Assembly: GCA_964639295.1 (NCBI GenBank)
Contig: CAZXDT010000003.1
Location: 1,304-65,303 of the forward strand
Direction: 5' to 3'
Length of the DNA stretch: 64,000 nucleotides
Origin: an uncultured Candidatus Saccharibacteria bacterium
Lineage (GTDB): Bacteria; Patescibacteriota; Saccharimonadia; Saccharimonadales; JALRHH01
The translations under genes and the position numbers were made by a program. The notes under the pieces were generated by a model that saw only the letters and a list, made by a program, of their open reading frames with translations, did not search any database and was not told the origin of the DNA. The first letter of the stretch is position 1, and each line of letters starts with the position of its first letter. Positions 1 through 62,030 of this stretch are shown in pieces.

Positions 1-65
1 GATAGTCAAAACCCTAGCAAGTTTTATTTTGCTAGGGTCTGTGACTGAGTGTGTATGTGCGTTAT

Positions 66-1385
66 TTAGAAAGTCGTTGTTGCTATGAAGTCTGCTTGTA
101 CAGTATACGCACCTGTTGGGGTCGTAATACCTGACAGAGCTGCAAACTTCAGGATGAGTGCTTCGTCATCAACCACTTTTACTGCTGAACCTGTTGAGGT
201 CGCGATGGTTGTGGTGTTAGCAGGGTTCGCATCCCAGGCGTAACCACCGTTAGTGGTACCACCGACTTGATCACTATCTGTTACGAATGTACCGGTACCG
301 TTACCATCATAGACTCCATCACGGACCATGTTACAGCCCGAACCGCCAGAAGCACATGTGTAAGCACTGGTGCTACCACCGTTGATACCGGCAATAGTCA
401 TACCGAACTTTTCGCCACTAATACCGACCGTGAATGCACCTTGTGAAGCACTTGTATTGAAACACTGGTCAGTGGTACTAGTAGAGACTGGGGAAGCAGT
501 ACAGGTTGCACCGGGCACTTTGAGGGAGCCAGAGCTGGTCTCTGAAAGCGAGTGATATGCAATACTCGCACCGTTAAAGGCGTTTGTACGGATCATCGCT
601 ATCGCGTTGGTGTTACTACCACCGTTAGTTGTACTCACCGGAGACACGTTAGTAGCACTGCTATCGATGTTACCGATATCAACACTAGAGGTACCAGCAA
701 GGGTGACTGCTGCACAGTCTGCACCAGGTGTCGTAGTATCGGTGTTAACTGTTGTTGATGCCACACAGAAGTCTAGACGTTCCTGGACACGTGCGTTGAC
801 GGTCAAGGTCTGTGAAGTACTTTGTGCGAAGACACCTTCCCACTTGAGGGTTGTACCGGTATCTGAGTAGATACGCATACGAGTGTAGTAGCTCTTGTTT
901 GGAGTTGTGTTGTTAACAATATCTGATGCACCTAGAGTGATCTTAAGTGCTGTTTTGCTTGTTGCATCGTCGGCAGTTGTCTTATCAAACTGAATTTGGT
1001 TATTAGAACCACCGCCTAGACCGTTTTCACGAGTAGTTGTCCCACCTGTTGAGGTCCATGGACCAGACAATGTGGCAGTTGGTGAAAGAGCGATTGTTGG
1101 TGTATTAACTGTAGTACAGGTAGTTAGTGGCGTGTCACAGAACTGAATTTCAATATAGTCTGCGTTGGCTGTGTCTGCAGTGGTATTAAATGTCCACTCT
1201 AGCTGGGTTGTTTGGCTAGGACGTGCACTAGTTGATGTTAGGTTGCGAGATAACAGTGTTGGAGCAGCAGACGCTGAACCGGTTATTAAAACCGGGGCTA
1301 CAGCAGCAAACGTCAAGACTAAGGCTGATAGCCCTGCTTGCGCCCTGCGGGAGAGATCCCGGAAACGATCTATATACACACTCAT
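66..1385 (-). CDS. Secreted Thr/Ser-rich surface protein, tandem paralog 1 (439 aa)
   Basis: Long ORF. N-terminal hydrophobic signal-like segment (..ITGSASA/AP). Paralogous to the 1779..3104 product, with an identical central block. AAGGAAA RBS-like sequence upstream. Confidence 0.8.
   Translation of the reverse strand: MSVYIDRFRDLSRRAQAGLSALVLTFAAVAPVLITGSASAAPTLLSRNLTSTSARPSQTTQLEWTFNTTADTANADYIEIQFCDTPLTTCTTVNTPTIALSPTATLSGPWTSTGGTTTRENGLGGGSNNQIQFDKTTADDATSKTALKITLGASDIVNNTTPNKSYYTRMRIYSDTGTTLKWEGVFAQSTSQTLTVNARVQERLDFCVASTTVNTDTTTPGADCAAVTLAGTSSVDIGNIDSSATNVSPVSTTNGGSNTNAIAMIRTNAFNGASIAYHSLSETSSGSLKVPGATCTASPVSTSTTDQCFNTSASQGAFTVGISGEKFGMTIAGINGGSTSAYTCASGGSGCNMVRDGVYDGNGTGTFVTDSDQVGGTTNGGYAWDANPANTTTIATSTGSAVKVVDDEALILKFAALSGITTPTGAYTVQADFIATTTF
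508..845. repeat. 338-bp tract 100% identical to 2221-2558 (inside paralog 1)
   Basis: Manual line-by-line comparison. Identity starts at gcaccgggc and ends at cccactt. Flanking sequence is only about 80% identical. Confidence 0.9.
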
Positions 1386-1515
1386 TTTGTTTTTCCTTTT
1401 ATATACTTTGTTTATTTTTTAGTATTAATGACCTATTTTTACCATAATACTCTGGGTAAACGCAAGCACTTTCACAGCATAGTTTTCCACAGGTAAGCAC
1501 TGAGGTGCACGCACT

Positions 1516-1666
1516 CCACACTTGAGATCATTTGGATTTGTTTGAGCGAAACGTAAAGGAGCCGTACTTAGGTACGGTGACTGTGTATCGTAAGCAAACA
1601 AATTCGAAGGAGCCAAGAGGCTGGCGGGTTACAAGCTCAGCTTGTAAGCAGGCCAGCCGGTGTGGG
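1516..1666 (+). ncRNA. Family-1 structured intergenic element, copy A (candidate ncRNA or REP-like repeat)
   Basis: Closing stem CCACAC/GTGTGG; hairpin GCCGTAC-ttag-GTACGGT; terminal hairpin GGCTGGC..TTACAAGCT-ca-AGCTTGTAA..GCCAGCC. Homologous to copies at 27247, 37809 and 61161. Confidence 0.6.
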
Positions 1667-1680
1667 GTGTGTTTGCAGTA

Positions 1681-1720
1681 AATAAATAAACGCCCTCTGC
1701 AATTATATGCAGGGGCGTTT
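1681..1720 (-). terminator. Rho-independent terminator after paralog 2
   Basis: - strand stem cgcccctgca/tgcagagggcg followed by tttatttatt. Confidence 0.75.
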
Positions 1721-1778
1721 ATTACCCGTTAGCTGAACTATGTCAGGATGGGATTTGATTAACCTAAAACATTCGTAC

Positions 1779-3104
1779 TTAGAAAGTAGCAGTTGCTATA
1801 AAGTCTGCTTGCACAGTGTACGAACCAGTTGGTGTCGTAATACCTGACAGAGCTGCAAACTTTAGAATCAATGCTTCGTCGTCGATAACCTTTACTGCTG
1901 AACCAGTTGAGGTCGCGATGGTTGTCGTGTTAGCAGGATCTGCGTCCCAGGCATAACCACCATTTGTGGTGCCAGCTACTTGGTCGATATCAGTTACGAA
2001 TGTACCTGTACCGTTGCCGTCGTATGCTCCATCACGGACTACATTACAACCTACGCCACCAGCGGCACATGTGTATGCACTGGTGCTACCACCGTTGATG
2101 CCGGCAATGGTCATACCGAATTTCTCACCGGTTGTACCAACTATAAATGCGCCTTGTGATGCACTTGTGTTGAAACATTGGTCAGTTGTACTTGTAGATA
2201 TTGGAGAAGCAGTACAAGTCGCACCGGGCACTTTGAGGGAGCCAGAGCTGGTCTCTGAAAGCGAGTGATATGCAATACTCGCACCGTTAAAGGCGTTTGT
2301 ACGGATCATCGCTATCGCGTTGGTGTTACTACCACCGTTAGTTGTACTCACCGGAGACACGTTAGTAGCACTGCTATCGATGTTACCGATATCAACACTA
2401 GAGGTACCAGCAAGGGTGACTGCTGCACAGTCTGCACCAGGTGTCGTAGTATCGGTGTTAACTGTTGTTGATGCCACACAGAAGTCTAGACGTTCCTGGA
2501 CACGTGCGTTGACGGTCAAGGTCTGTGAAGTACTTTGTGCGAAGACACCTTCCCACTTCAAACTCGTAGCAGGGTTGTCGTCGTAGATACGTACACGTGT
2601 GTAGTACGACTTGTTGACTGCTGCATTGTTAGTAATGTCAGCTGCACCAAGCGTAATTTTTAGTGCCGTTTTACTTGTTGCATCGTCGGCATTGGTCTTA
2701 ACGATATCAATCTGGTTATTTAAACCGTTAGATGATGCCGTACGACCATCCACTCGCGTGGTCGAGGTAACCGCAGTACTCGTCCACGGACCCGACAGTG
2801 TGGCAGTTGGTGCTATAGCAACACTTGGCGTGTTTACGGTTGTACACGTACCAAGCGGGCTGTCACAGAACTGGATTTCGATTGTCTTTGCATTCGCAGT
2901 ATCAGCCGTAGTATTGAACGTCCACTCTAATTGAGTGTTCGTCGAGGGTTGGGCACTCGTAGATGTAAGCATACGAGATGTAATGGTCGGAGCAGCTCCT
3001 GCTGTCGCTGGCAAAAGTGCTGGCAACACTCCAACTGCCCCAAGAATTACAACCTTAGTCCACAACGATACCCTACGCATTTGTAGAGTTATGTTTTGAG
3101 ACAT
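1779..3104 (-). CDS. Secreted Thr/Ser-rich surface protein, tandem paralog 2 (441 aa from the AAGGAG-preceded ATG)
   Basis: Long ORF. The ATG at 3104 is preceded by AAGGAG; the ORF track starts 21 nt upstream at 3125. Has a signal peptide and is a paralog of the 66..1385 product. Confidence 0.8.
   Translation of the reverse strand: MSQNITLQMRRVSLWTKVVILGAVGVLPALLPATAGAAPTITSRMLTSTSAQPSTNTQLEWTFNTTADTANAKTIEIQFCDSPLGTCTTVNTPSVAIAPTATLSGPWTSTAVTSTTRVDGRTASSNGLNNQIDIVKTNADDATSKTALKITLGAADITNNAAVNKSYYTRVRIYDDNPATSLKWEGVFAQSTSQTLTVNARVQERLDFCVASTTVNTDTTTPGADCAAVTLAGTSSVDIGNIDSSATNVSPVSTTNGGSNTNAIAMIRTNAFNGASIAYHSLSETSSGSLKVPGATCTASPISTSTTDQCFNTSASQGAFIVGTTGEKFGMTIAGINGGSTSAYTCAAGGVGCNVVRDGAYDGNGTGTFVTDIDQVAGTTNGGYAWDADPANTTTIATSTGSAVKVIDDEALILKFAALSGITTPTGSYTVQADFIATATF
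2221..2558. repeat. 338-bp tract 100% identical to 508-845 (inside paralog 2)
   Basis: Same manual comparison. The identical spurious + strand ORFs 552..758 and 2265..2471 in the ORF track confirm it. Confidence 0.9.
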
Positions 3105-3379
3105 ATAGTTCTCCTTAATTAACATACGTGGTGCGCACAGAGAGCCTGCATATCTTAGGATCTGGATTTAATAACAAGCAAGAGAAGCCTTCAAGCACAC
3201 GAACTAGACCAATTATATGGATTCGTTTTACTAACGGCGTCGCAAGCTGTCACTTTAGCGTCGCATATGTTTGATTTATATTGATTGTTTTTGTTTTAGG
3301 TTAATATGCACACTATTCATACCATATTATTGTGCATTAGCACAAGCAGTTATCCACAGATACACGTATCCCCTACTAC

Positions 3380-4858: not shown

Positions 4859-5155
4859 CTGTTCTTCCCTCTCGGGACCCCCATATGGATTTACTGCCAT
4901 TATTGCACACAACACTAAAAACACAACCACTTACGAGGAGGGGTTGTTAAAGTGTGTACGCAACGCTGAACTGCAAAACAAGCTGAGAACGGTCAGTCAG
5001 AAGTTCAAAAATGTGCTTTACAGTGTCCAGTAATGTTTGTGTTGTTTGTACCAAATGTACCGTAGCATATTTTTACTACAAGCACAAGCGTGACTGATTG
5101 CGGTTATGTTTTTGACTGCAAACATAGTATTATTGATGCAAGAAGACCAGAGGCC

Positions 5156-6154
5156 ATGGATAATAAATCAGAAGATACAAATCAGCCAGAAAAACCTGAG
5201 AACACTGAGCCAGTGTCCGGTTCAAGCAACGCTGAAGGCGAAAGCCTTGAAGGCAGTACTGATGCAACTGCGTCTTCTGATGTAAAAGTAAGCGCGCCAA
5301 AACAAAGCATTGGTAAGCGTATTCAGGGACTCATAACAGGCTTGAACATCTACCTTATACTGTTTATTTTCATCGTGGTACTTGCCGCAGGTATCGTTAT
5401 GATTGGCATTCAGAAAAACAAAAAAGCTGCCACGCCAACTACTGTTAACACCCAGACGCTATCCGCTGACGAACTCAAGAAAATCGCCGAAAGCGAACAA
5501 AAAGTTGGCGATCCTAAGTCAACGCTATCTATCGAATCTAATGCTATCTTCAGCGGTAAAGTACTGATCCGTGACAGTTTAGACGTTGCGGGAACTATCA
5601 AGGTGGGTGGGGCATTGAGTCTACCAGGCATTAGCGTGTCCGGGGAGAGTAGCTTCGACCAGATCAAAGCTAACAACCTAACTATTACCGGTAACACGGC
5701 TATCCAAGGTCAATTAAGTATCCAAAAGGGTATAACCAGCAGTGGCGGTGCAAGCTTTGGTGGACCTATCTCTGCCCCTATCTTGACGGTTCAGAGCCTA
5801 CAAATCAGTGGTGATTTACAGATCACTCGACATATTGACGCAGGTGGTGGCACACCAGGAAAGGTAGATGGCAGTTCGTTAGGATCTGGCGGAACCGTAT
5901 CTATTAGTGGTAGCGACACAGCTGGGACAATAACCATCAATACCGGTGGTGGCCCGGGTGCAGGTTGTTTCGTGACCGTTAACTTCACGCAGAAATTCAG
6001 TGGCAATCCACACGTTGTTGTATCCCCTGTTGGTTCAGGTGCGGCGTCACTCCAGTACTACATAAACCGAAACAGCAGTAACTTTAGCCTCTGCACCGCC
6101 AATGCCCCAGGTGGTGGCCAAAGCTTCTCATTCGACTACATAGCCATCGACTAA
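5156..6154 (+). CDS. Membrane-anchored protein with Gly-rich beta-helix-like repeats
   Basis: ORF. ATG 5156 is preceded by AGAGG; the ORF track starts at GTG 5090. One TM segment, then repeated G-x-L/I-x-V/I-x-G motifs. Confidence 0.7.
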   Translation: MDNKSEDTNQPEKPENTEPVSGSSNAEGESLEGSTDATASSDVKVSAPKQSIGKRIQGLITGLNIYLILFIFIVVLAAGIVMIGIQKNKKAATPTTVNTQTLSADELKKIAESEQKVGDPKSTLSIESNAIFSGKVLIRDSLDVAGTIKVGGALSLPGISVSGESSFDQIKANNLTITGNTAIQGQLSIQKGITSSGGASFGGPISAPILTVQSLQISGDLQITRHIDAGGGTPGKVDGSSLGSGGTVSISGSDTAGTITINTGGGPGAGCFVTVNFTQKFSGNPHVVVSPVGSGAASLQYYINRNSSNFSLCTANAPGGGQSFSFDYIAID

Positions 6155-6177
6155 TCTAACACCTCACAAAGGGTTCT

Positions 6178-6293
6178 GAGCTTGAGTGTAGCTTGGGATG
6201 CTCATCGAGGCTTGACCTTGAGGCGTACTAAAAGTACGGCGAAAGGTCAGACGTAAGATAAGCGCCCAAGATGCGCCAAGGTCTGAAGCCGCC
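6178..6293 (+). ncRNA. Family-1 element, divergent/truncated copy E
   Basis: CTTGAG..TTGGGAT head. Stem GACCTT/AAGGTC encloses hairpin CGTAC-taaaa-GTACG. Then ACGTAAG and GCGC-ccaagat-GCGC. The long 3' hairpin is missing. Confidence 0.4.
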
Positions 6294-6294
6294 T

Positions 6295-6618
6295 TTAGAT
6301 ATCGAGAAAAACCACGACTTCGTCAGCTTTTACATGCATAATCCCACGCGCAATCTTAATATGCTCCTCATTATCATCCGTACGCACAATAATATCGCCT
6401 GAGTTTAGCAATGTCATGAAGTTGTGGTGCTTGGGCAATATGTCGAAAGTACCGGTATCGTTCACACCGGAAATACTGTTTGCCTCACCGTCAAAATACA
6501 CTTTAAATGGTGCATAGACCTTGACGTGCATCGTCTTGCCGTCAACTCGCGATTCAGGAATTGCGGCATTGGTAGCGGTATCTTTATGCTCGACAGGTTT
6601 GTTGTCATCTTCTGGCAT
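6295..6618 (-). CDS. atpC: F1 ATP synthase epsilon subunit
   Basis: Last gene of the atp operon. Epsilon-like beta-sandwich sequence (ILPKHHNFMTLL...). The true start may be the internal MHVKVY. Confidence 0.8.
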   Translation of the reverse strand: MPEDDNKPVEHKDTATNAAIPESRVDGKTMHVKVYAPFKVYFDGEANSISGVNDTGTFDILPKHHNFMTLLNSGDIIVRTDDNEEHIKIARGIMHVKADEVVVFLDI

Positions 6619-24931: not shown

Positions 24932-25312
24932 TGGTGGAGCTGGCGGGGTACCGCCCCCCGCGTCCGCTAGTTTATCTAATTAGTCTATCCTACAGGTATA
25001 GTTTGCTTGAATACAACATGGAGTGAAAGCAAACAAAAGTCCACGAGGTTTGATCCTTGTCTTAGTCCGACTACGGATCAATTGCCGGAAGCATCCAGAA
25101 ATATATGTTACGACTAGTGCTATCTGGCGTCACTCTAGGCGCAGCTGTAGGCAATTAAGCTACAGCGAAAGCAGGCTCAGGGAACAAACGTGCCTTGAGG
25201 TCTGCAATCAAAGAAGTGCGATCTGCAATTACTTTGAGTTTGTCTATAACGCTGACAAGCGACCTGCTGATCTAACTGATAAAGTCCAACGTCGAGCTTA
25301 AAATTCAGCCCC
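24932..25312 (-). ncRNA. ssrA: tmRNA (SsrA)
   Basis: 5' GGGGCTGAATTTTAAGCTCGACG. 3' ...CCCCGCCAGCTCCACCA. Acceptor stem with a G3-U pair. Internal tag ORF ...ADRTSLIADLKARLFPEPAFAVA-TAA. Confidence 0.9.
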
Positions 25313-26687: not shown

Positions 26688-27224
26688 ATGAGCAAAACAC
26701 ATATTAGAAAGTTCAAGTGGGCGTACATACTGCTGTTTTTTGTACTAGCTATTGGTTATGTCATTTTCCGTTTCTTTAACCCCAGTGTTGGTTTTACCTA
26801 CTATGAACCCTCCTACGTACCAGCAAACATATCTGTTAAAACCAAAAGAATAAGCATCACTCGGGGGAATGTTCAGGTAGAGCAAGACTTCAGAACAGAA
26901 GATTGGGTCTACAGCATTAGTGAGTACAAATCCGACGAGTCAATTGGTGACGCAAAGCAAAACTACGACCCTAAAAGCATTACACCAACATGCGAGATCC
27001 GAATTTCACCAGTCAAGACACAGTATCGCTTATGTCACTGGATTGACTATGGAAAAATCGACGTTCACGAAATTAAGTTTATAAAGAATGGTACTTTTAT
27101 AGATGCACAAATTCCTACTGAACTAAAGGATCAGATCACCGTAGATCAGCTAGACACCTTTGTTGATTCGTTCAAGAAAAAGAGTACGATTGGCCTGCCT
27201 GTACTCCGTTCTAACGGAGCCTAA
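26688..27224 (+). CDS. Membrane-anchored hypothetical protein (178 aa)
   Basis: ORF with an N-terminal TM segment. Confidence 0.7.
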   Translation: MSKTHIRKFKWAYILLFFVLAIGYVIFRFFNPSVGFTYYEPSYVPANISVKTKRISITRGNVQVEQDFRTEDWVYSISEYKSDESIGDAKQNYDPKSITPTCEIRISPVKTQYRLCHWIDYGKIDVHEIKFIKNGTFIDAQIPTELKDQITVDQLDTFVDSFKKKSTIGLPVLRSNGA

Positions 27225-27246
27225 TAACTTGTGCGGACAACAGGTT

Positions 27247-27397
27247 CCACACTTGAGCCAATTTGGATTTTCTTCTGCGAAACGTAAAGGAAACGTATCT
27301 AAATACGTTGACTGCGTATCGTAAAGAAGAAAATTCGAAGTGGCCAAGAGGCCAGCGGGTCATGGGCTCCGCTCATGAGCAGGCTGGCCGGTGTGGG
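27247..27397 (+). ncRNA. Family-1 structured intergenic element, copy B
   Basis: CCACAC...GTGTGG closing stem; hairpin AACGTAT-ctaa-ATACGTT; terminal hairpin GGCCAGC..TCATGGGC-tcc-GCTCATGA..GCTGGCC. Confidence 0.6.
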
Positions 27398-27405
27398 ATC
27401 TGTGA

Positions 27406-28632
27406 CTACCAGTAGTGGTGAGCGATCCAGAAATTGTATGCTCCCGACCAGCTGCCATATCGCCCGGATGCATAGCCACTACACCACTTCAGCTGTGTTA
27501 CTGGGTTTGTTCCCCAGTCAGCACCAGCTGTAGCCATCTTGCTGCCTGGGAGTGCCTGACAGAGACCAAACGCACCACTTGGGTTACGTGCAGCCGCGTT
27601 CCAGCCTGATTCACGGCTGACAATGTAGTTCACATACGGGAAGTCAGATCGGCTGATACCTGCAGCAAGCATTGTTGCTTCCTTATCTGCTGGGATAAAT
27701 ACAGCGCGGCCACGGGCAACAATCTGTTTAACTGGTTCTACTGCGACAATCGACTGTATTTCCTTACGACCAACTTCTTTGCCGTTTTGTGTATCTACCT
27801 GATAAGTAACCAATTTTTTACCTGGAGTTCCCTTTTGCCTGACGGCAACAGATCCAAATGACAGACTCGGGTCCTCAATAGTCTGTACTTCGTTTGCAAT
27901 TACTTGTTCCTCAGTAACTACCTTACTACCGTTACGGACAACAAAAATCTGTGACTGAGGTGTAATTGGCGTCTCTGTTGCAGGCTGCACAGTATCGTCC
28001 TTAGCTAGTTCTACTTTCTTTTCCTTGAGCAACTCACCGACGGTCTTTGCGTGCGTACGTACTGGTACCTGCGTGCCGTATAAGTTCAAGTTAGTTGGCG
28101 TAGCGCGATCAATAACAACCTTCTCACCAATCGCTCCATCACGGAGGAAGTCAGTCTCCATTTGGCTTTCAATCTTGTCCTCCGGGAAGACATCTACTCC
28201 AGCCTGGCTCGCCACACTACGCGGTGTTGTAGCAGCGCTAAAGGCAAATGTCTTACGACCGTTATCAATGACGGTTACTGGACGTGATCGATAAATATTA
28301 ATACGGAACTTCTCATCCAAGATTGGCGTGTCAGCGCTCGGCTCAACAATATCACCTTCGTTAAGCGGAATGTTTACACGCTGCAGGAACTCACCAACTG
28401 TCTTGGCACGAGTTGGCAGTGTCTCTTGTTTCTTGTCATGGCTAAAAACAACCAAGTGGGAATCAGACGGAACAACCTTTTCTGCACTCGTAGAAACAAA
28501 AATAGCTAGAGATGCAAAAAACAGCACCAATATCATTACCACTGGGATAACTAATGGGTGTTTGTGCCAATTGTGGCGGGTCAACCATGCAATTGGCTTA
28601 CGCCAATGTATTGTAGGTTTAGGTATAGTCAT
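27406..28632 (-). CDS. RpfB/YabE-like cell-wall protein (DUF348 repeats, G5 domain, C-terminal transglycosylase-like domain)
   Basis: N-terminal TM; repeated KTVGE(F/L)L..(V/I).L motifs; G5-like VRQKGTPGKKLVTYQV; C-terminal SRESGWNAAARNPSGAFGLCQALPGSKM. Confidence 0.8.
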   Translation of the reverse strand: MTIPKPTIHWRKPIAWLTRHNWHKHPLVIPVVMILVLFFASLAIFVSTSAEKVVPSDSHLVVFSHDKKQETLPTRAKTVGEFLQRVNIPLNEGDIVEPSADTPILDEKFRINIYRSRPVTVIDNGRKTFAFSAATTPRSVASQAGVDVFPEDKIESQMETDFLRDGAIGEKVVIDRATPTNLNLYGTQVPVRTHAKTVGELLKEKKVELAKDDTVQPATETPITPQSQIFVVRNGSKVVTEEQVIANEVQTIEDPSLSFGSVAVRQKGTPGKKLVTYQVDTQNGKEVGRKEIQSIVAVEPVKQIVARGRAVFIPADKEATMLAAGISRSDFPYVNYIVSRESGWNAAARNPSGAFGLCQALPGSKMATAGADWGTNPVTQLKWCSGYASGRYGSWSGAYNFWIAHHYW

Positions 28633-37579: not shown

Positions 37580-37654
37580 TGGTGATCTCGAGGGGAGTCG
37601 AACCCCTGTTACCAGGATGAAAACCTGGTGTCCTAACCGTTAGACGACGAGACC
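37580..37654 (-). tRNA. tRNA-Glu(UUC), CCA encoded
   Basis: Manual cloverleaf: GGTCTCG acceptor stem, anticodon loop TTTTCAT, T-arm GGGGTTCGACTCCCC. Confidence 0.95.
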
Positions 37655-37720: not shown

Positions 37721-37752
37721 AAACCCCTCCCTAGTGAAAGAGAGGGGTTTTC
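37721..37752. terminator. Bidirectional hairpin terminator
   Basis: AAACCCCTC...GAGGGGTTT flanked by A and T runs. Confidence 0.6.
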
Positions 37753-37808
37753 TGGCCTATAGGCCGGAGCGGTCAGTCAAACTACTCGTTTGGCTGGGAC
37801 CGACATAT

Positions 37809-37959
37809 CCATACTTGAGACAATTTGGATGCGACTCTGCGGAGTACAAGGAGCCGTACTAAAGTACGGTGACTGCACCCCGCAAAAAGAGGCAAGTTCA
37901 AATGGTCCAAGAAGCCAGCGGGTCGCGAGCTCCGCTCGTGAGCAGGCTGGCTGGTATGG
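37809..37959 (+). ncRNA. Family-1 structured intergenic element, copy C (most divergent full copy)
   Basis: Closing stem CCATAC/GTATGG; stem GCGGAGTAC/GCACCCCGC; hairpin GCCGTAC-taaa-GTACGGT; terminal hairpin AGCCAGC..TCGCGAGC-tcc-GCTCGTGA..GCTGGCT. Confidence 0.6.
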
Positions 37960-37968
37960 AATGTCGGG

Positions 37969-39378
37969 TTAGCTACGACGAGCTAACACAAGGCGGTGAG
38001 CCATAGCACCAGCTACTGTAATAGCAGCAAAGATACCAAGGATATCGCCAGCACCAGTATCTACCAACTTAGTTGGAGTCTCTGGAGTGTTGTAGTTTAC
38101 TTTACCTTCACATACGCTTGTCTGATCAACGTCATTAACATTGAATCGAACAGTTGCGGTAAGTGAATATTCACCATCTTCGGCGTATGTGTGCTCTACA
38201 TTTGCTACCTTGTCAGTAACAAGTGGCGTAGAACCATCACCAAAGTCGTATGTTACGTTCTTGAACGTAACACCGTTCTTGGCAGTGTACTTAACACCGA
38301 GGTTGACCTTACGGCCATCAAGCTTAGCAACCTGCAAGAGATCACACTTGTACTCGGGAGCTGTAGTTACACAATCCTTTTGTACGTTAACCGTCGCAGA
38401 GTCGTTGTATTGACCAGTTTGGTCAGTATCAACAACTGCGATGTTCTTGATGTTGTTCATGCCACAAGCAAGACTTGTGCCTGGGTCTACTGTTGCCACA
38501 AATGTGATCAACGCAGAAGCACCTGGCAAGAGTGTGCCGACATTTTTACGGCCACTGAAGAAAGCGTTTGCTTCATCAGCAGTCATAACCGTACCATTGT
38601 ATGAACCGTAAAACTTCTTGGCTGTGCCAGGGACGAATGTTACGCCCTTTGGAAGTGGGTCACGGAGGTATACGTTAGTAAGGTTTGTGTTACTCAAGTT
38701 CTTAGCTTGAACAATGTATTCAACACGAGCACCAGGCTGTGCAACTAAGTTGTCAGTAGCCTGAGTTGTGCCACCTTCATTGTGCACGTACTTGTAGATA
38801 CCAACTGATGGGATCTTAACACGAGCCATGAAAGTAACGGTTGCTTCGAACTCGTGACAAGGCTTAACATCTTCAATAACTGCACCACTAAGGATAATGC
38901 TATCGTTGATTTGCTGTGTCACAAGGTTCTGGTCGGTACGAGTACCAACGTTGTGCTTCCAGTAGACGCTACCAGGAATAAATTCTAGGTTAGCGTCTGC
39001 ACGGTTTAAGTTAACCGTAGCGGTGTCGGTAATGGTGTTGGTGTTATCACCCTTCATCGTTACCTTTACAACTTGGTTCGTACCAGCAGCAGTTGGCATA
39101 TCAATCTTGATTTTAAAGTTTTCCGCAACACGGTTAGATTCCGGTAGTTCGCGGTTGTGGTAGTAGACAGAGAATTTTACAACTTCGTCATACTTCGCAT
39201 TTGTGCTTGTCTTGTATGTAGTTTCACCAGTAGTCTGGTTGGCTACGCCAATAGATCCTTCCATGAGGACATCAACTGCCATCACAGAGTGGATTGGAAG
39301 TGCAATCAAAGCAAGTAATGTAACCATAAATAGGCTCACTCGCTTTGGAGCACGCTTTAGGTATGAAAATAGTTTCAT
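37969..39378 (-). CDS. Cell-surface repeat protein (DUF11-like beta-sandwich) with a C-terminal sorting-signal-like tail
   Basis: Signal peptide. C-terminus LVDTGAG, then a hydrophobic stretch, then RLVLARRS. AAGGAG RBS. Confidence 0.8.
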   Translation of the reverse strand: MKLFSYLKRAPKRVSLFMVTLLALIALPIHSVMAVDVLMEGSIGVANQTTGETTYKTSTNAKYDEVVKFSVYYHNRELPESNRVAENFKIKIDMPTAAGTNQVVKVTMKGDNTNTITDTATVNLNRADANLEFIPGSVYWKHNVGTRTDQNLVTQQINDSIILSGAVIEDVKPCHEFEATVTFMARVKIPSVGIYKYVHNEGGTTQATDNLVAQPGARVEYIVQAKNLSNTNLTNVYLRDPLPKGVTFVPGTAKKFYGSYNGTVMTADEANAFFSGRKNVGTLLPGASALITFVATVDPGTSLACGMNNIKNIAVVDTDQTGQYNDSATVNVQKDCVTTAPEYKCDLLQVAKLDGRKVNLGVKYTAKNGVTFKNVTYDFGDGSTPLVTDKVANVEHTYAEDGEYSLTATVRFNVNDVDQTSVCEGKVNYNTPETPTKLVDTGAGDILGIFAAITVAGAMAHRLVLARRS

Positions 39379-46661: not shown

Positions 46662-46741
46662 ATTACGTATGAGTCTATACGTAATATGGTGCCTAGGAAA
46701 GGACTTTCTCGCACACCCGGCAATTCTATGGTGTGCAGAGG

Positions 46742-46861
46742 CTACTTATTCCTACGGTGTAATTGGCCAACTAACATTGGTTTATTAGTTGTTTTGTTTT
46801 GAGATTTAGCCCGCATCTGCAACATTTGCTGCTTTTGAGAAAAAGAAATTAAGTCTTTCAT
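46742..46861 (-). CDS. Possible small basic protein (39 aa)
   Basis: ATG preceded by AAGGAGGG. Sequence MKDLISFSQKQQMLQMRAKSQNKTTNKPMLVGQLHRRNK. Not in the ORF track because it is under 60 aa. Confidence 0.3.
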   Translation of the reverse strand: MKDLISFSQKQQMLQMRAKSQNKTTNKPMLVGQLHRRNK

Positions 46862-46966
46862 AACCTACCCTCCTTGTACTTACCATTATACGCTCGCTTA
46901 CAAGAAGGTGCTTGTGTCTGTATACCTCTGGTTACGGCGCAGTTACTCGGAAATACAAAGCAAGCT

Positions 46967-46995
46967 TTGAATTTCCTCCGTACTGCTTGTATAGT
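46967..46995 (+). promoter_or_regulatory. Sigma70-like promoter, leaderless layout
   Basis: TTGAAT-17-TATAGT, then 6 nt, then ATG 47002. Confidence 0.6.
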
Positions 46996-47001
46996 TAAGT
47001 C

Positions 47002-47373
47002 ATGTCGACCAAGATTGCGATTATCGAAGACGATCAGGCTATCAGCCAGATGTATCGTATTAAGTTTGAGGCAGAGGGCTACGAAGTCGAAACTGCCGAG
47101 AACGGTAAGCTTGGTCTTGAGCTGGCCGATAAAATGCGACCAGACATTATTCTCTTGGATCTCATGATGCCAGAAATGAACGGAGATGAAGCCCTACAAA
47201 AGCTCCGTGCCACGGAGTGGGGCAAAGACATCAAAGTAATCATCCTAACCAACATGGGTGAGCAAGAAGCGCCGGCAGTTCTAAAGACATTGAACGTACG
47301 GCGCTTTATTGTAAAGGCAGAAATGACCCCACGCCAAGTAGCCGAAATGGTGAAGCAAGAACTGAGTTCTTGA
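47002..47373 (+). CDS. Stand-alone response regulator receiver domain (CheY-like)
   Basis: DD..D..T..K receiver pattern (IIEDD, ILLDLMMP, LTN, K); 123 aa. Confidence 0.9.
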   Translation: MSTKIAIIEDDQAISQMYRIKFEAEGYEVETAENGKLGLELADKMRPDIILLDLMMPEMNGDEALQKLRATEWGKDIKVIILTNMGEQEAPAVLKTLNVRRFIVKAEMTPRQVAEMVKQELSS

Positions 47374-47407
47374 TAGTTTATAGATAATCCTTGATACAAT
47401 ATCTGTA

Positions 47408-51419: not shown

Positions 51420-51496
51420 GGGCCAGTAGCTCAGCTGGTTAGAGCACCTGCCTCTTAAGCAGGGTGTCGAGGGTTCGAGTCCCTCCTGGCCCTCCA
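51420..51496 (+). tRNA. tRNA-Lys(CUU), CCA encoded
   Basis: Manual cloverleaf: GGGCCAG acceptor stem, anticodon loop CTCTTAA, T-arm GAGGGTTCGAGTCCCTC. Confidence 0.95.
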
Positions 51497-55583: not shown

Positions 55584-55660
55584 TGGTACACCCGGCAAGA
55601 TTCGAACTTGCGACACCTGGTTCCGAAGACCAGTGCTCTAATCCACTGAGCTACGGGTGC
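55584..55660 (-). tRNA. tRNA-Arg(UCG), CCA encoded
   Basis: Manual cloverleaf: GCACCCG acceptor stem, anticodon loop CTTCGGA, T-arm GCAAGTTCGAATCTTGC. Confidence 0.95.
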
Positions 55661-59623: not shown

Positions 59624-61153
59624 ATGGGCATTATGTCAGATACAAACGAGAAAATTGGTCACCTTATTTATCAAGTACGACAAGAACGCGGTATGACGCA
59701 AGCAGAGTTTGCACGCAAGCTCGGTACCAGTCAATCAGCCGTTAACCGTATAGAACACGGCAAACAGAATCTCAGCCTTGAGACACTCGGCCGCATCAGT
59801 GATGTACTGAAGAAGCCCTTGATTACCCTTGGCACCAACGCGATGAACTTCAAAATTGAAGGTGGCCATGAACTCAGTGGGACTATCCAAACAAATGTAT
59901 CCAAGAACGCTGCGGTTTGTCTCTTATTTGCTGCCCTACTCAATAAAGGAACAACGCGGTTCAAACGTATGCCTCGCATTGAAGAGGTCTACCGAATTAT
60001 CGAAGTGCTGACGAGTATTGGTGTCGGTGTTAAATGGCTACCTGGTAATGATTTAGAGATTAAACCCCCTGCTGAAATCAACATGAGCAAGATGGACAAT
60101 GTCGCTGCACGTAAAACCCGCAGTGTCATTATGATGCTTGGCCCACTCATGCACCTGTTTGACGATTTCCGGATCCCATACGCTGGTGGCTGTAAGCTTG
60201 GTACTCGTACCGTTCAGCCGCACCTGTTTGCTCTTGAGGAATTTGGCGTTGATATCATCGCCAAGACCGGCTTCTACCAGGTTAATGTAACCAAGAAGCA
60301 GCCAGAAGAGATTGTGCTGTACGAATCTGGTGACACCACTACAGAAAACGTCATTATGGCTGCTGCCAAATTTGACGGCGAAGTAACTATCAAGATGGCT
60401 AGTGCTAACTACATGGTCCAAGACCTGTGTATCTTCCTTAAGAAACTTGGTGTCAAAATTGACGGTATTGGTACCAGCACACTCAAGATCCGTGGCGTAA
60501 AAGACATTAAGAAGAACGTTACGTATTCACCAAGCGAAGACCCTATTGAATCTATGACCTTCATTGCTGCTGCAGTTGCTACCAACTCAAAGCTCACTAT
60601 TTCTCGCTCACCGATTGAATTCCTGGAGCTAGAACTCCTTAAGCTCAAGAAAATGGGACTCAAAGTTGATGTATCGGAAAAGTACAAAGCCGATAACGGA
60701 CACACTGATCTTGCGGACATTACCGTCCATAAACACAACGGCGAACTACGTGCGCTAGAAGAAAAGATCTATGCTCGTCCCTTCCCTGGGCTTAATATCG
60801 ATAACCTGCCACTATTTGTACCAATTGCCGCAGTCGCTAAAGGCCGCACATTGATCCATGACTGGGTCTATGAAGAACGCGCGCTGTACTACACAGAAAT
60901 GCGTAAACTAAACGTCAACGTCACCTTAGCCGATCCACACCGTGCATACATTGACGGGCCAACCAAGTGGAGTGCAGCTGATGTCGTCTGCCCACCTGCA
61001 CTGCGCCCAGCAATGCTGCTTCTTATTGGTATGTTGGCTGCAAATGGTGACTCTGTGCTACGTAACGTCTACTCCATTAACCGTGGATATGAAGATTTTG
61101 CAGAACGACTCAGTAGTGTCGGGGCGCATATCTCCCTAATGCACGAGATTTAG
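59624..61153 (+). CDS. murA: XRE-HTH domain fused to UDP-GlcNAc 1-carboxyvinyltransferase
   Basis: Residues ~10-65 form an HTH (RGMTQAEFARKLGTSQSAVNRIEHGKQN). The rest is MurA-like (SKNAAVCLLFAALL; active-site loop GGCKLGTRTV). The start may be ATG 59633. Confidence 0.9.
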   Translation: MGIMSDTNEKIGHLIYQVRQERGMTQAEFARKLGTSQSAVNRIEHGKQNLSLETLGRISDVLKKPLITLGTNAMNFKIEGGHELSGTIQTNVSKNAAVCLLFAALLNKGTTRFKRMPRIEEVYRIIEVLTSIGVGVKWLPGNDLEIKPPAEINMSKMDNVAARKTRSVIMMLGPLMHLFDDFRIPYAGGCKLGTRTVQPHLFALEEFGVDIIAKTGFYQVNVTKKQPEEIVLYESGDTTTENVIMAAAKFDGEVTIKMASANYMVQDLCIFLKKLGVKIDGIGTSTLKIRGVKDIKKNVTYSPSEDPIESMTFIAAAVATNSKLTISRSPIEFLELELLKLKKMGLKVDVSEKYKADNGHTDLADITVHKHNGELRALEEKIYARPFPGLNIDNLPLFVPIAAVAKGRTLIHDWVYEERALYYTEMRKLNVNVTLADPHRAYIDGPTKWSAADVVCPPALRPAMLLLIGMLAANGDSVLRNVYSINRGYEDFAERLSSVGAHISLMHEI

Positions 61154-61160
61154 CCAGCTT

Positions 61161-61309
61161 TCACACTTGAGCCAATTTGGATTTTGTTCTGCGAAACGTA
61201 AAGGAGCCGTACTAAGGTACGGTGACTGCGTCACGTAAAGAGGAAAATTCGAAGGGGCCAAGAGGCCAGCGGATGGCGAGCTCCGCTCGACAGCAGGCTG
61301 GCTGGTATG
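61161..61309 (+). ncRNA. Family-1 structured intergenic element, copy D
   Basis: TCACAC...GTATGA closing stem; GCGAAACGT/GCGTCACGT stem; GCCGTAC-taag-GTACGGT hairpin; GGCCAGC..CGAGC-tcc-GCTCG..GCTGGCT. Confidence 0.6.
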
Positions 61310-61436
61310 AATGCTGGCTAACGTAGAAGATCTTCTAGGTGAGACTTGTAGCCTGTCTTTAGATACATAATGTAGCTCAACGCTATAACAATGAGTGTCA
61401 CTAATATGACTGTTCGTTGCCATTCTTTGAGGTTTT

Positions 61437-62030
61437 TCATGGGCGAACCTCTGCAAGTTTAGCTGTAATTACTAACCTATCTTTTGCGGACCATAATGGA
61501 GTACATGTGTAGATCGTTAGTGTTGGATCTGCTGTTTGAGCTATGAGTGATGTATCTGTTGGGGGTACTTGGTTAACACCAGTTACCAAATAATCGTATC
61601 GTTTGCCCTGCCAATATAATGTCATTTCATCACCGGTATGTACTTTATCGAGGTAATAAAAAACTGCTTTGCCACTATAAGTGAATCGGTGCCCTGCCAT
61701 AATTGTGTTACCACCAATAATTGGCGTGCTGTTATCTGGTAGGTGCCATATACCTTTGTTAAGAGTGTGTTGATCTGGTCCATCAAACACCTCCTCTCGC
61801 ATATTGAGTACTGGAATGACCAATGTGTTTTGTTGAGGGATCGGGGCATTTACAGCAACACTGGTTGGAGCTTTATGTGAAATCACGGGCGCCTCATATC
61901 GCGTCCACCAGGTTAATGCAGGTAAAAATGGCCATGCAAGAATATACAACGCCAAAACAATAACTACTACTGCTAAACCATTATTAAGGCGACGATGGGT
62001 AATAATGCCATGCATGTACCTATTGTACAT
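61437..62030 (-). CDS. Sortase-family transpeptidase
   Basis: N-terminal TM; catalytic His context (MAGHRF); TLxTC-type motif LTIYTCTP; downstream Arg. Confidence 0.85.
   Translation of the reverse strand: MYNRYMHGIITHRRLNNGLAVVVIVLALYILAWPFLPALTWWTRYEAPVISHKAPTSVAVNAPIPQQNTLVIPVLNMREEVFDGPDQHTLNKGIWHLPDNSTPIIGGNTIMAGHRFTYSGKAVFYYLDKVHTGDEMTLYWQGKRYDYLVTGVNQVPPTDTSLIAQTADPTLTIYTCTPLWSAKDRLVITAKLAEVRP

Follow-up and report, generated by a model that had tools for sequence, protein, structure and literature searches.

The window analysed here is a 64,000-nt stretch of contig CAZXDT010000003.1 (assembly GCA_964639295.1, positions 1,304 to 65,303) from an uncultured Candidatus Saccharibacteria bacterium. 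Most of its genes lie on the - strand, and the spacers between them hold five copies (A to E) of a structured, non-coding repeat, referred to below as the element, whose copies occupy more than 1% of the window (Table 1). An earlier sequence-only reading of this DNA had reported four full copies and one divergent copy, all on the + strand, and two covariance models bear this out. R1, which describes a Y-shaped form, was built from the four full copies of the window (MAFFT alignment of A to D, RNAalifold consensus fold) and recovers them at 1512-1670, 27243-27401, 37805-37964 and 61157-61315, all on the + strand, with scores of 162-177 bits (E 1e-35 to 1e-39); on the reverse strand its top score is only 26 bits. 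R2 describes a hairpin form that consists of the stems P1 and P2 only. With those found in related genomes, 15 distinct copies from about six genomes were compared, and the Y-form copies examined scored between 135 and 177 bits. The repeat search of the window brought up no further non-coding interspersed family. A coding role was excluded, since copy C carries a 1-nt deletion and a 2-nt insertion with respect to the others and the stems covary. A 106-aa open reading frame (ORF) on the - strand crosses copy D and is almost certainly a spurious product of the repeat.

Copies A to D are predicted to share a three-way junction of 60 pairs, 18 of which are compensated within the four sequences. 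In the Y form, P1 is the long closing stem, P2 a long arm interrupted by internal loops and P3 a hairpin. The closing stem, the internal-loop arm, the GCCGTAC-N4-GTACGGT hairpin and the GGCCAGC...GCTGGCC hairpin all appear in the consensus fold as they had been described by eye. The compensatory changes listed at that stage are likewise real, among them the AACGTAT/ATACGTT variant of the apical hairpin in copy B, except that GCGGAGTAC/GCACCCCGC of copy C pairs at 7 of 9 positions only. When ten Y-form copies from five genomes were aligned to the model, pairing was found in 94.8% of cells and both-side changes at 38 of the 60 pairs, with invariant loops and covarying stems. None of 500 column shuffles matched the observed pairing and covariation values, and sliding the 3' partners by 1-3 columns reduced pairing to 32-43%. 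Being fitted to the model and drawn from related copies, this alignment yields pairing figures which lean towards the structure; the slid controls, and a pairing test of the outer stem given below, are free of the fitting bias.

The fold belongs to one strand. In the ten Y-form copies G.U cells outnumber A.C cells by 65 to 10, three G.U pairs are nearly unexchanged (10/10, 9/10 and 8/10 sequences), and in 8/8 full copies the + strand fold is better than that of the - strand by 10-28 kcal/mol, in agreement with the earlier remark that certain G-T pairs appear only when the + strand is read. The minimum free energy (MFE) of copy A is -92.1 kcal/mol on the + strand and -64.6 on the - strand, and that of copy D is -84.8 (z -6.2) and -64.6 kcal/mol, respectively. 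The excess of G.U over A.C, together with the nearly fixed G.U pairs, indicates that the target of selection is the + strand in single-stranded form. On theoretical grounds mutation bias was rejected as the source of the G.T excess: deamination of C to T should raise the number of wobble pairs on the leading strand, and the leading strand here would be the one opposite to the folding strand. With DNA parameters the MFE of copy D is -45.1 (+) versus -31.5 (-) kcal/mol; RNA and DNA parameters give an identical structure and an identical strand asymmetry, and folding does not distinguish RNA from single-stranded DNA.

The ends of the element are defined by pairing. P1 extends 7-10 bp past the conserved CCACAC/GTGTGG in every full copy, to a total of 15-17 bp; the outer extension is unlike in sequence from copy to copy and its pairing is always kept (Table 1; TCTAGCAAC/GTTGCTAGA in the copy of locus L123). 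The 12-nt flanks of the core pair with a mean of -10.4 kcal/mol when taken from the same copy and with -4.0 +/- 2.5 kcal/mol when swapped between copies. Because the extension is paired and copy-specific, the Y form is taken to be about 165-185 nt long (about 165-175 nt in the window) and not the ~150 nt first proposed; the hairpin form measures about 125 nt. There is no consensus for a terminal inverted repeat of the kind seen in classical miniature inverted-repeat transposable elements (MITEs), the ends reading, for example, TTAGCCAGC, CCGACAT, ACAGGTT and TCTAGCAAC. The adjoining sequence also varies, being GGCT, ACAT or TCTA on one side and CTAA, ATGA, GTAG or CTAG on the gene strand, where the tetranucleotide is simply the stop codon. 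Both closing-stem arms of copy C are missing from the empty sites of relatives, and therefore belong to the inserted unit; a derivation of the arms from the target was rejected for this copy. Insertion into terminator hairpins was rejected as well, the outer stems being without following T runs.

Copy E had been taken for a truncated copy, but is a distinct hairpin form which is present in other genomes too. It lacks P3, folds with an MFE of -62.3 kcal/mol (z -5.3) and retains CUUGAG, UUGGGAUG, the GCGUACU-AAA-AGUACG hairpin and CCAAGAUGC. Compared with three elements from other genomes, this long imperfect palindrome has 41 predicted pairs, 20 of them compensated. R2 also detects the P2 arm of Y-form copies at 20-40 bits, and the two forms are therefore homologous.

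Syntenic loci of five genomes were reached through homologues of two window proteins (64-90% amino-acid identity). Scanning species-representative genomes for the pattern yielded a single true match, in an uncultured Candidatus Saccharibacteria metagenome-assembled genome (L003, 149.6 bits), and a metagenome scan gave three further copies (L123, L125 and L133), all from one sample. The site of copy C is empty in L135 and L138, in which 0-3 nt replace 37796-37968 between flanks that are 80-90% identical. At the site of copy E the convergent genes overlap (CTAA) in L147 and L148 and lie 4 nt apart in L149; L123 holds a Y-form copy at this site and the window the hairpin form. In L138 the stop of UvrD and the start of NUDIX, codons which overlap in the window and in L135, have a copy exactly between them, and another separates PK from PGK, genes that are 19-21 nt apart in the window and in L135; L140 contains an internally deleted, decayed remnant of the PK/PGK copy. 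By empty-site comparison target duplication is inconsistent, amounting to at most one T for copy C, CAT for the UvrD/NUDIX copy of L138 and possibly CTA for its PK/PGK copy. An IS630-like TA or CTAG target was rejected, as neither copy C nor the UvrD/NUDIX copy shows a TA duplication. In the orthologous spacer of L147 at the site of copy A no copy was found, and the centre of that spacer is not alignable to the window.

Where different genomes have a copy at the same locus, the copies are only loosely alike and share mainly a few motifs, while the nearby intergenic DNA is 83-90% identical, which points to turnover or repeated insertion, not to vertical descent. Subfamilies are genome-specific, related genomes differ in element density (0 to 3 copies per 21 kb), and the gene end occupied by copy B in the window bears the hairpin form in relatives. 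Short-read Logan contigs break within copies, those of L001, L145 and L146 ending inside copy D. From these comparisons the element appears to be, or recently to have been, mobile. Among the roles first proposed, that of a REP/MITE-like repeat recognised as a single-stranded hairpin is favoured by the clean empty sites, the genome-specific subfamilies, the decayed remnant and the contig breaks. That it is not a plain MITE, as copies in both orientations with target duplications would have indicated, follows from the single orientation of all 15 copies, the inconsistent target duplication and the lack of a conserved terminal repeat.

Table 1. Copies of the element and other features discussed in the text (window coordinates unless a locus is named).
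Feature	Location	Strand	Description
Copy A	1505-1677	+	Y form (three-way junction); conserved core 1515-1666; 168.8 bits; variable outer closing stem GCACGCAC / GTGTGT(T)TGC
Copy B	27240-27403	+	Y form; 176.8 bits; outer stem ACAGGTT / GATCTGT
Copy C	37796-37968	+	Y form; 161.7 bits; outer stem CCGACAT / ATGTCGG
Copy D (reference copy)	61150-61321	+	Y form; 167.8 bits; outer stem TTAGCCAGC / GCTGGCTAA
Copy E	6166-6292	+	Hairpin form without P3; 121 bits with R2, 16.4 bits (E 0.05) with R1
Further copy	L138:9287-9448
Further copy	L138, spacer between PK and PGK genes
Further copy	L138:11234-11358
Further copy	L140:11228-11352
Further copy	L147:1555-1712
Further copy	L003:5458-5583
Paralogous tandem genes	66-1385, 1779-3125 (region 63-3125)	-	No Pfam match
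Bidirectional terminator	1690-1722		Adjoins copy A
Gene left of copy E	5090-6154		Convergent with atpC
atpC	6295-6618		Convergent with 5090-6154
tmRNA and three tRNA genes	24932-25312, 37583-37654, 51420-51493, 55587-55660	-, -, +, -
178-aa ORF	26688-27224	+	N-terminal membrane anchor; no Pfam domain
Stop complement CTA	27406-27408		RpfB-like gene
Bidirectional terminator	37724-37745		Between tRNA gene and copy C
Stop complement TTA	37969-37971		Abuts copy C
Spacer with short overlapping ORFs	46662-47407		About 740 nt
HTH_3/EPSP synthase gene	59624-61153	+	TAG stop at 61151-61153
106-aa ORF	61136-61456	-	Crosses copy D
Perfect 14-bp palindrome	61324-61337		TAGAAGATCTTCTA
Longer paralogue run	L147 1711-7974
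Spacer after RpfB-like gene	L135 11228-11415
Segments within TGGTGGAGCTGGCGGG repeats	L138 14430-15010, L136 6110-6570		HNH_3 gene (L138), 93-aa ORF (L136)
Gene-free stretch	L149 1409-2008		600 nt

All 15 copies are oriented antisense to the prevailing gene direction. In 13/15, all but copies A and D, a gene on the opposite strand has its stop codon 0-9 nt from the end of the conserved core or of the hairpin; the variable outer arm fills the gap to the stop and often contains the stop codon itself (CTA in L123 and L125, TCA in L138). The 3' end of the element always faces the 3' end of the antisense gene or transcription unit. Wherever the empty site of a relative permits a check (C, UvrD, PK and atpC) the stop codon proved to be ancestral, and at least three events with a clean empty-site comparison, copy C among them, are insertions exactly at an ORF boundary. 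Copy C was inserted at the stop although more than 100 nt of spacer was available.

Of the copies in the window, all of which had been placed at gene 3' ends, B, C and E lie within 5 nt of a - strand stop codon, A about 110 nt and D about 120 nt from one. Three copies (B, D and E) are flanked by convergent gene pairs, as had been noted, so that copies occupy 3 of about 8 convergent junctions in the window and 2 of about 35 co-directional ones. Copy B is placed between the stop of the + strand gene for a 178-aa protein and the stop complement of the RpfB-like gene, copy E between the two convergent stops on either side of it, and the right end of copy C abuts a stop complement. Copy A lies between two - strand paralogous genes, 5-10 nt past the bidirectional terminator of the upstream one. 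The 5' arm of copy D contains the stop of a + strand gene and its 3' end abuts a perfect palindrome; this single case argues, tentatively, that orientation follows the chromosome strand and not the nearest gene. In the UvrD/NUDIX copy of L138 the complement of the element provides AGGGAG 5 nt before the NUDIX ATG. The GC skew of the + strand is negative over most of the window, and together with the gene bias this makes the folding + strand the probable leading-strand template.

Several neighbours of the copies have features of their own. The two tandem paralogues, whose spacer holds copy A, are 74-83% identical over several blocks, and a longer run of such paralogues is found in L147. The 178-aa ORF lies between a KsgA-like gene and copy B; L135, L138 and L140 have no gene at this position, KsgA following directly after the RpfB-like gene, and the ORF is a lineage-specific gene gain beside copy B. 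The + strand gene next to copy D fuses an N-terminal HTH_3 domain to a full EPSP synthase domain, an unusual combination, and the palindrome, between copy D and the sortase gene, is without a T run after it. Copy C lies about 140 nt from a tRNA gene, with a bidirectional terminator in between. In L135, which is a 90%-identical relative, the spacer after the RpfB-like gene contains neither form of the element; it is instead hairpin-rich, with a CTTGAG motif, an A+T-rich near-perfect hairpin and ATGAGGGAACC/GGTTCCCTCAT directly after the stop, and may represent yet another repeat family or a terminator.

The position of the element raises the question of whether it serves the host as RNA. Transcribed from the + strand, it could stop transcripts produced by read-through from a convergent gene or by spurious antisense transcription, or tag them for processing, for instance by RNase III at the 15-17 bp closing stem; the fold would form only in RNA that opposes the gene. 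It could also stabilise the 3' end of the upstream + strand gene of a convergent pair. The one-strand fold with its almost unchanged G.U pairs, the invariant loops and covarying stems, the enrichment between convergent genes and the constant facing of the element's 3' end are all as expected of such an RNA. So is the conservation of the core across genomes, which exceeds that of protein genes: a copy from a genome with genes only 69% identical is 75-82% identical to the window copies. No + strand promoter-like site was found upstream of copies A and C, however, and the small RNA gene family suggested earlier thus gained no positive support. A consensus scan gave no terminator-like site inside the element on either strand, and no U tract follows it, so that it is not an intrinsic terminator; real terminators adjoin copies A and C. 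In close relatives that lack the element at these loci nothing appears to substitute for it, density is as uneven as described above, one copy has decayed, and a host function needs no arrival by insertion. We regard a host-serving RNA as the unlikely explanation, while noting that a 3'-end or insulator role is possible, as it fits position and orientation, and that a domesticated mobile element could be both and would reconcile the two.

The element was compared with known families in several ways. Rfam 15 at gathering thresholds returned only tRNA and tmRNA for the whole window, and a permissive search (E <= 10) of copy D with its flanks gave only a chance bicoid_3 match of 10.5 bits (gathering score 91), so that the initial impression of no known RNA class is upheld within these searches. 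Pattern scans of viral contigs gave 113 loci, all of them chance matches by covariance-model score; phage and plasmid collections searched in distant mode gave no match, and full-text literature searches (Saccharibacteria with MITE; the conserved motifs) nothing relevant. The spacer that separates the - strand gene of an EamA transporter from the + strand gene of a Mur ligase has only short overlapping ORFs; Rfam gave no match there at gathering thresholds, and the spacer may harbour divergent promoters or an unrecognised RNA. In L149 a gene-free stretch has a very low predicted folding energy, about -232 kcal/mol, on both strands, and neither R1 nor R2 matches it.

A mobilising enzyme was sought among the neighbours. 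Those of the 15 copies are ordinary genes or genes without a Pfam match, the annotated ones including RpfB-like, DUF11, atpC, sortase, UvrD, NUDIX, PK and PGK, and none is annotated as a reverse transcriptase; no tnpA, tnpB, RAYT or intI gene occurs in the examined loci. The 178-aa ORF beside copy B was rejected as the mobilising protein on account of its membrane anchor, its lack of a Pfam domain and the absence of such a neighbour from other copies. An HNH_3 gene in L138 was rejected as a partner, as it belongs to an island flanked by tRNA-3'-end-like repeats and unrelated to the element. The motif concerned, TGGTGGAGCTGGCGGG, is the complement of a tRNA 3' end with CCA and recurs around short segments in L138 and L136; these look like small tRNA-gene-integrated elements, unrelated to the repeat.

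The fold also invites comparison with retroelements. A SINE-like element would be transcribed from the + strand and copied by a reverse transcriptase encoded elsewhere, of the group II intron, diversity-generating retroelement or retron type, and the product would enter at the replication fork. The long closing stem and conserved internal hairpins resemble a retron a1/a2 stem with its msr/msd hairpins, the ends pairing with each other as a1/a2 repeats do, and the many G.U pairs and the tandem GA/GA that flanks the apical hairpin are RNA-like. Uniform orientation within a stretch of one replichore would suit such entry too, since the inserted strand corresponds in sequence to the nascent lagging strand, which oligonucleotide recombineering has established as the easiest site for the incorporation of single-stranded DNA. 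Against this, no annotated reverse transcriptase gene adjoins any of the 15 copies, whereas in retrons it stands immediately downstream of the non-coding RNA; no poly-A or other tail and no homology between the element arms and the targets was seen. The RNA-like features are not decisive because DNA parameters yield the same fold and strand asymmetry. Copying by reverse transcription therefore seems to us quite improbable.

The conserved core, the ends that need only to pair, the absence of a fixed terminal repeat or duplication, the selection on one strand, the uniform orientation and the insertion polymorphism point to a non-autonomous mobile element that is recognised by its structure. We consider it likely, with a probability of roughly 0.6, that the repeat is a lineage-specific family of such elements in a clade of Candidatus Saccharibacteria, and that its folded single strand is recognised by an enzyme acting in trans. 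The fold with its covariation and strand specificity, the number, boundaries and orientation of the copies, their insertion polymorphism and their position next to stop codons are demonstrated by the comparisons; both the enzyme and the single-stranded intermediate, whether of DNA or RNA, are inferred from these features. The active form would be one folded single strand, corresponding to the window's + strand, and invariant, mostly unpaired parts of its core would be recognised by an enzyme whose gene lies elsewhere in the genome. These parts would be the apical hairpin GCCGUAC-N4-GUACGGUGA with the flanking GA/GA loop, the AUUUGGAU/AAAUUCRAA helix with its fixed G.U pairs, the CCAAGA junction and the CGGG/GAGCAGG loop of P3. 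The enzyme would act at the base of the closing stem, where only pairing is needed. Action at such a site would account for the combination of a conserved core with copy-specific paired ends, and equally for the missing terminal repeat and the missing consistent target duplication. Copies would persist at gene ends in a single orientation, the closing stem rejoining the flanks so that the ancestral stop is retained; in the tightest case, close to the next gene, the rejoined flanks would retain the start codon as well. Survival at stop codons may partly reflect selection, but selection alone fails for copy C, and some targeting of gene ends therefore seems likely.

A number of points weigh against this interpretation. 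Neither the scanned ORFs of the window nor the fetched loci, judged by their precomputed Pfam annotation, showed a transposase, recombinase or reverse-transcriptase domain, and we know of no autonomous parent element. The folding strand is, by GC skew and gene bias, the leading-strand template, which is the opposite of the IS200/IS605 rule; the strand-biased single-stranded DNA mechanism suggested in the sequence-only reading remains plausible in general and departs from IS200/IS605 logic in this respect. With 15 copies from about six genomes, replication-related and gene-related rules of orientation are not separable. Compensatory changes and a core conserved beyond protein genes would also fit a host RNA function, and insertion 0 nt from TAA, TAG and TGA stops is hard to explain by any DNA target sequence.

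It is conceivable, though doubtful, that the element represents a hitherto unrecognised type of mobile element, defined by its fold and not by its end sequences: a conserved Y-shaped or hairpin core would be recognised in single-stranded form, cut and joined at a stem base of arbitrary sequence, and inserted in fixed orientation at the exact 3' boundary of ORFs, 0 nt from ancestral TAA, TAG or TGA stops. Such a mechanism would differ from the DDE, HUH-with-fixed-target, integron and group II intron modes alike; it might be RNA-mediated or coupled to lagging-strand synthesis, and the very compact genomes of the Candidate Phyla Radiation (CPR) may also have recruited the element to insulate against antisense transcription. 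That the mechanism of mobilisation is new can be put forward only tentatively. Saccharibacteria and other CPR bacteria have very small, tightly packed genomes, in which repeats and mobile DNA are generally said to be scarce. The structured repeat of the window undergoes turnover among close relatives and is yet more conserved across genera than protein-coding genes, with pairing-only ends, strict orientation, docking at stop codons and selection for a one-strand fold, a combination unmatched in any catalogued family. The mobilising activity, if found, could reveal a new form of structure-guided DNA insertion, and should the element work as RNA instead, few lineage-specific regulatory RNAs would have been described in the phylum before it. 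On the practical side, the element breaks short-read assemblies and creates spurious ORFs.

With classical MITEs the element shares its multi-copy, non-coding nature and its presence/absence polymorphism, with clean empty sites at copies C and E, UvrD/NUDIX and PK/PGK; a target-site duplication of fixed length, which marks such elements, was not found. In its logic it is closest to repetitive extragenic palindromes (REPs) and REPINs with their RAYT enzymes, to IS200/IS605 and to the attC sites of integrons, each of which differs from it in every defining feature that could be compared. REP/REPIN sequences and the palindrome-associated transposable elements (PATEs) are thought to move as folded single-stranded DNA through an enzyme acting in trans, which for REP/REPIN is RAYT, a Y1 HUH protein. 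They resemble the element in being extragenic, located at gene 3' ends, able to form hairpins and devoid of a classical terminal repeat or target duplication. REPs measure 20-40 nt and REPINs are symmetric doublets, whereas the element is one asymmetric fold of 125-185 nt with, in the Y form, a three-way junction (for an overview of REPs see PMC3184786). PATEs have separate left- and right-end hairpins and a fixed target tetranucleotide; the element is one global fold closed by both of its ends and has no fixed target.

The copies could for these reasons be degenerate pieces of a known single-strand system, be it IS200/IS605 ends (as PATEs or as orphan TnpB guide-RNA scaffolds), REPINs mobilised by RAYT or attC sites, all of which are likewise strand-specific folded DNA with little or no target duplication and a bias in orientation. 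The hairpin form, as a long imperfect palindrome, recalls a REPIN; its fold is strongly asymmetric between strands, however, and the Y form has a third arm. PATEs and TnpB scaffolds have separate subterminal hairpins and a fixed 4-5-nt target at the left end, and neither is seen here, the adjoining tetranucleotide being the stop codon. In IS200/IS605 the folding strand is the lagging-strand template, and the element, judged by skew, has it on the opposite replication strand. attC sites are imperfect palindromes of 60-140 nt which follow stop codons directly, with the recombining strand antisense to the gene and in uniform orientation. The element is like attC (for instance the Vibrio cholerae repeats) in this position, in relying on structure over sequence, in its antisense folding strand and in its uniform orientation. 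In attC the ends (R and L boxes) are conserved and the centre is variable, the reverse of the element, whose ends lack GTTRRRY and which has no R''/R' boxes (RYYYAAC/GTTRRRY). Moreover, attC sites form cassette arrays beside intI, and copies of the element are scattered 5-26 kb apart among housekeeping genes. None of the loci contains a gene for the enzymes of these systems, and in view of all these differences a degenerate member of one of them is a very improbable source.

Other intergenic repeats of 100-170 bp with stable predicted RNA folds are SPRITE, ERIC/IRU and Correia elements, none of which matched the element in Rfam or by sequence. Terminal repeats of 26 bp and a TA duplication characterise Correia elements, and the present element is without conserved terminal repeats; SPRITE resembles a Rho-independent terminator, in which a G+C-rich hairpin is followed by the U tract missing here. 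Nevertheless, SPRITE and structured repeats of the bcr1 type are the closest described analogues (PMC3184786). The bcr1 repeat of the Bacillus cereus group, about 155 bp long, has a branched fold kept by compensatory changes, lies between direct repeats of 5 bp and is known to be transcribed (PMC3184786). Although the two have no sequence similarity, and the element differs in its inconsistent duplication, its copy-specific closing-stem ends, its single orientation in 15/15 copies, its docking at stop codons and its CPR lineage, both are small, non-coding, multi-copy repeats, unevenly distributed between related strains, with a covarying branched structure.

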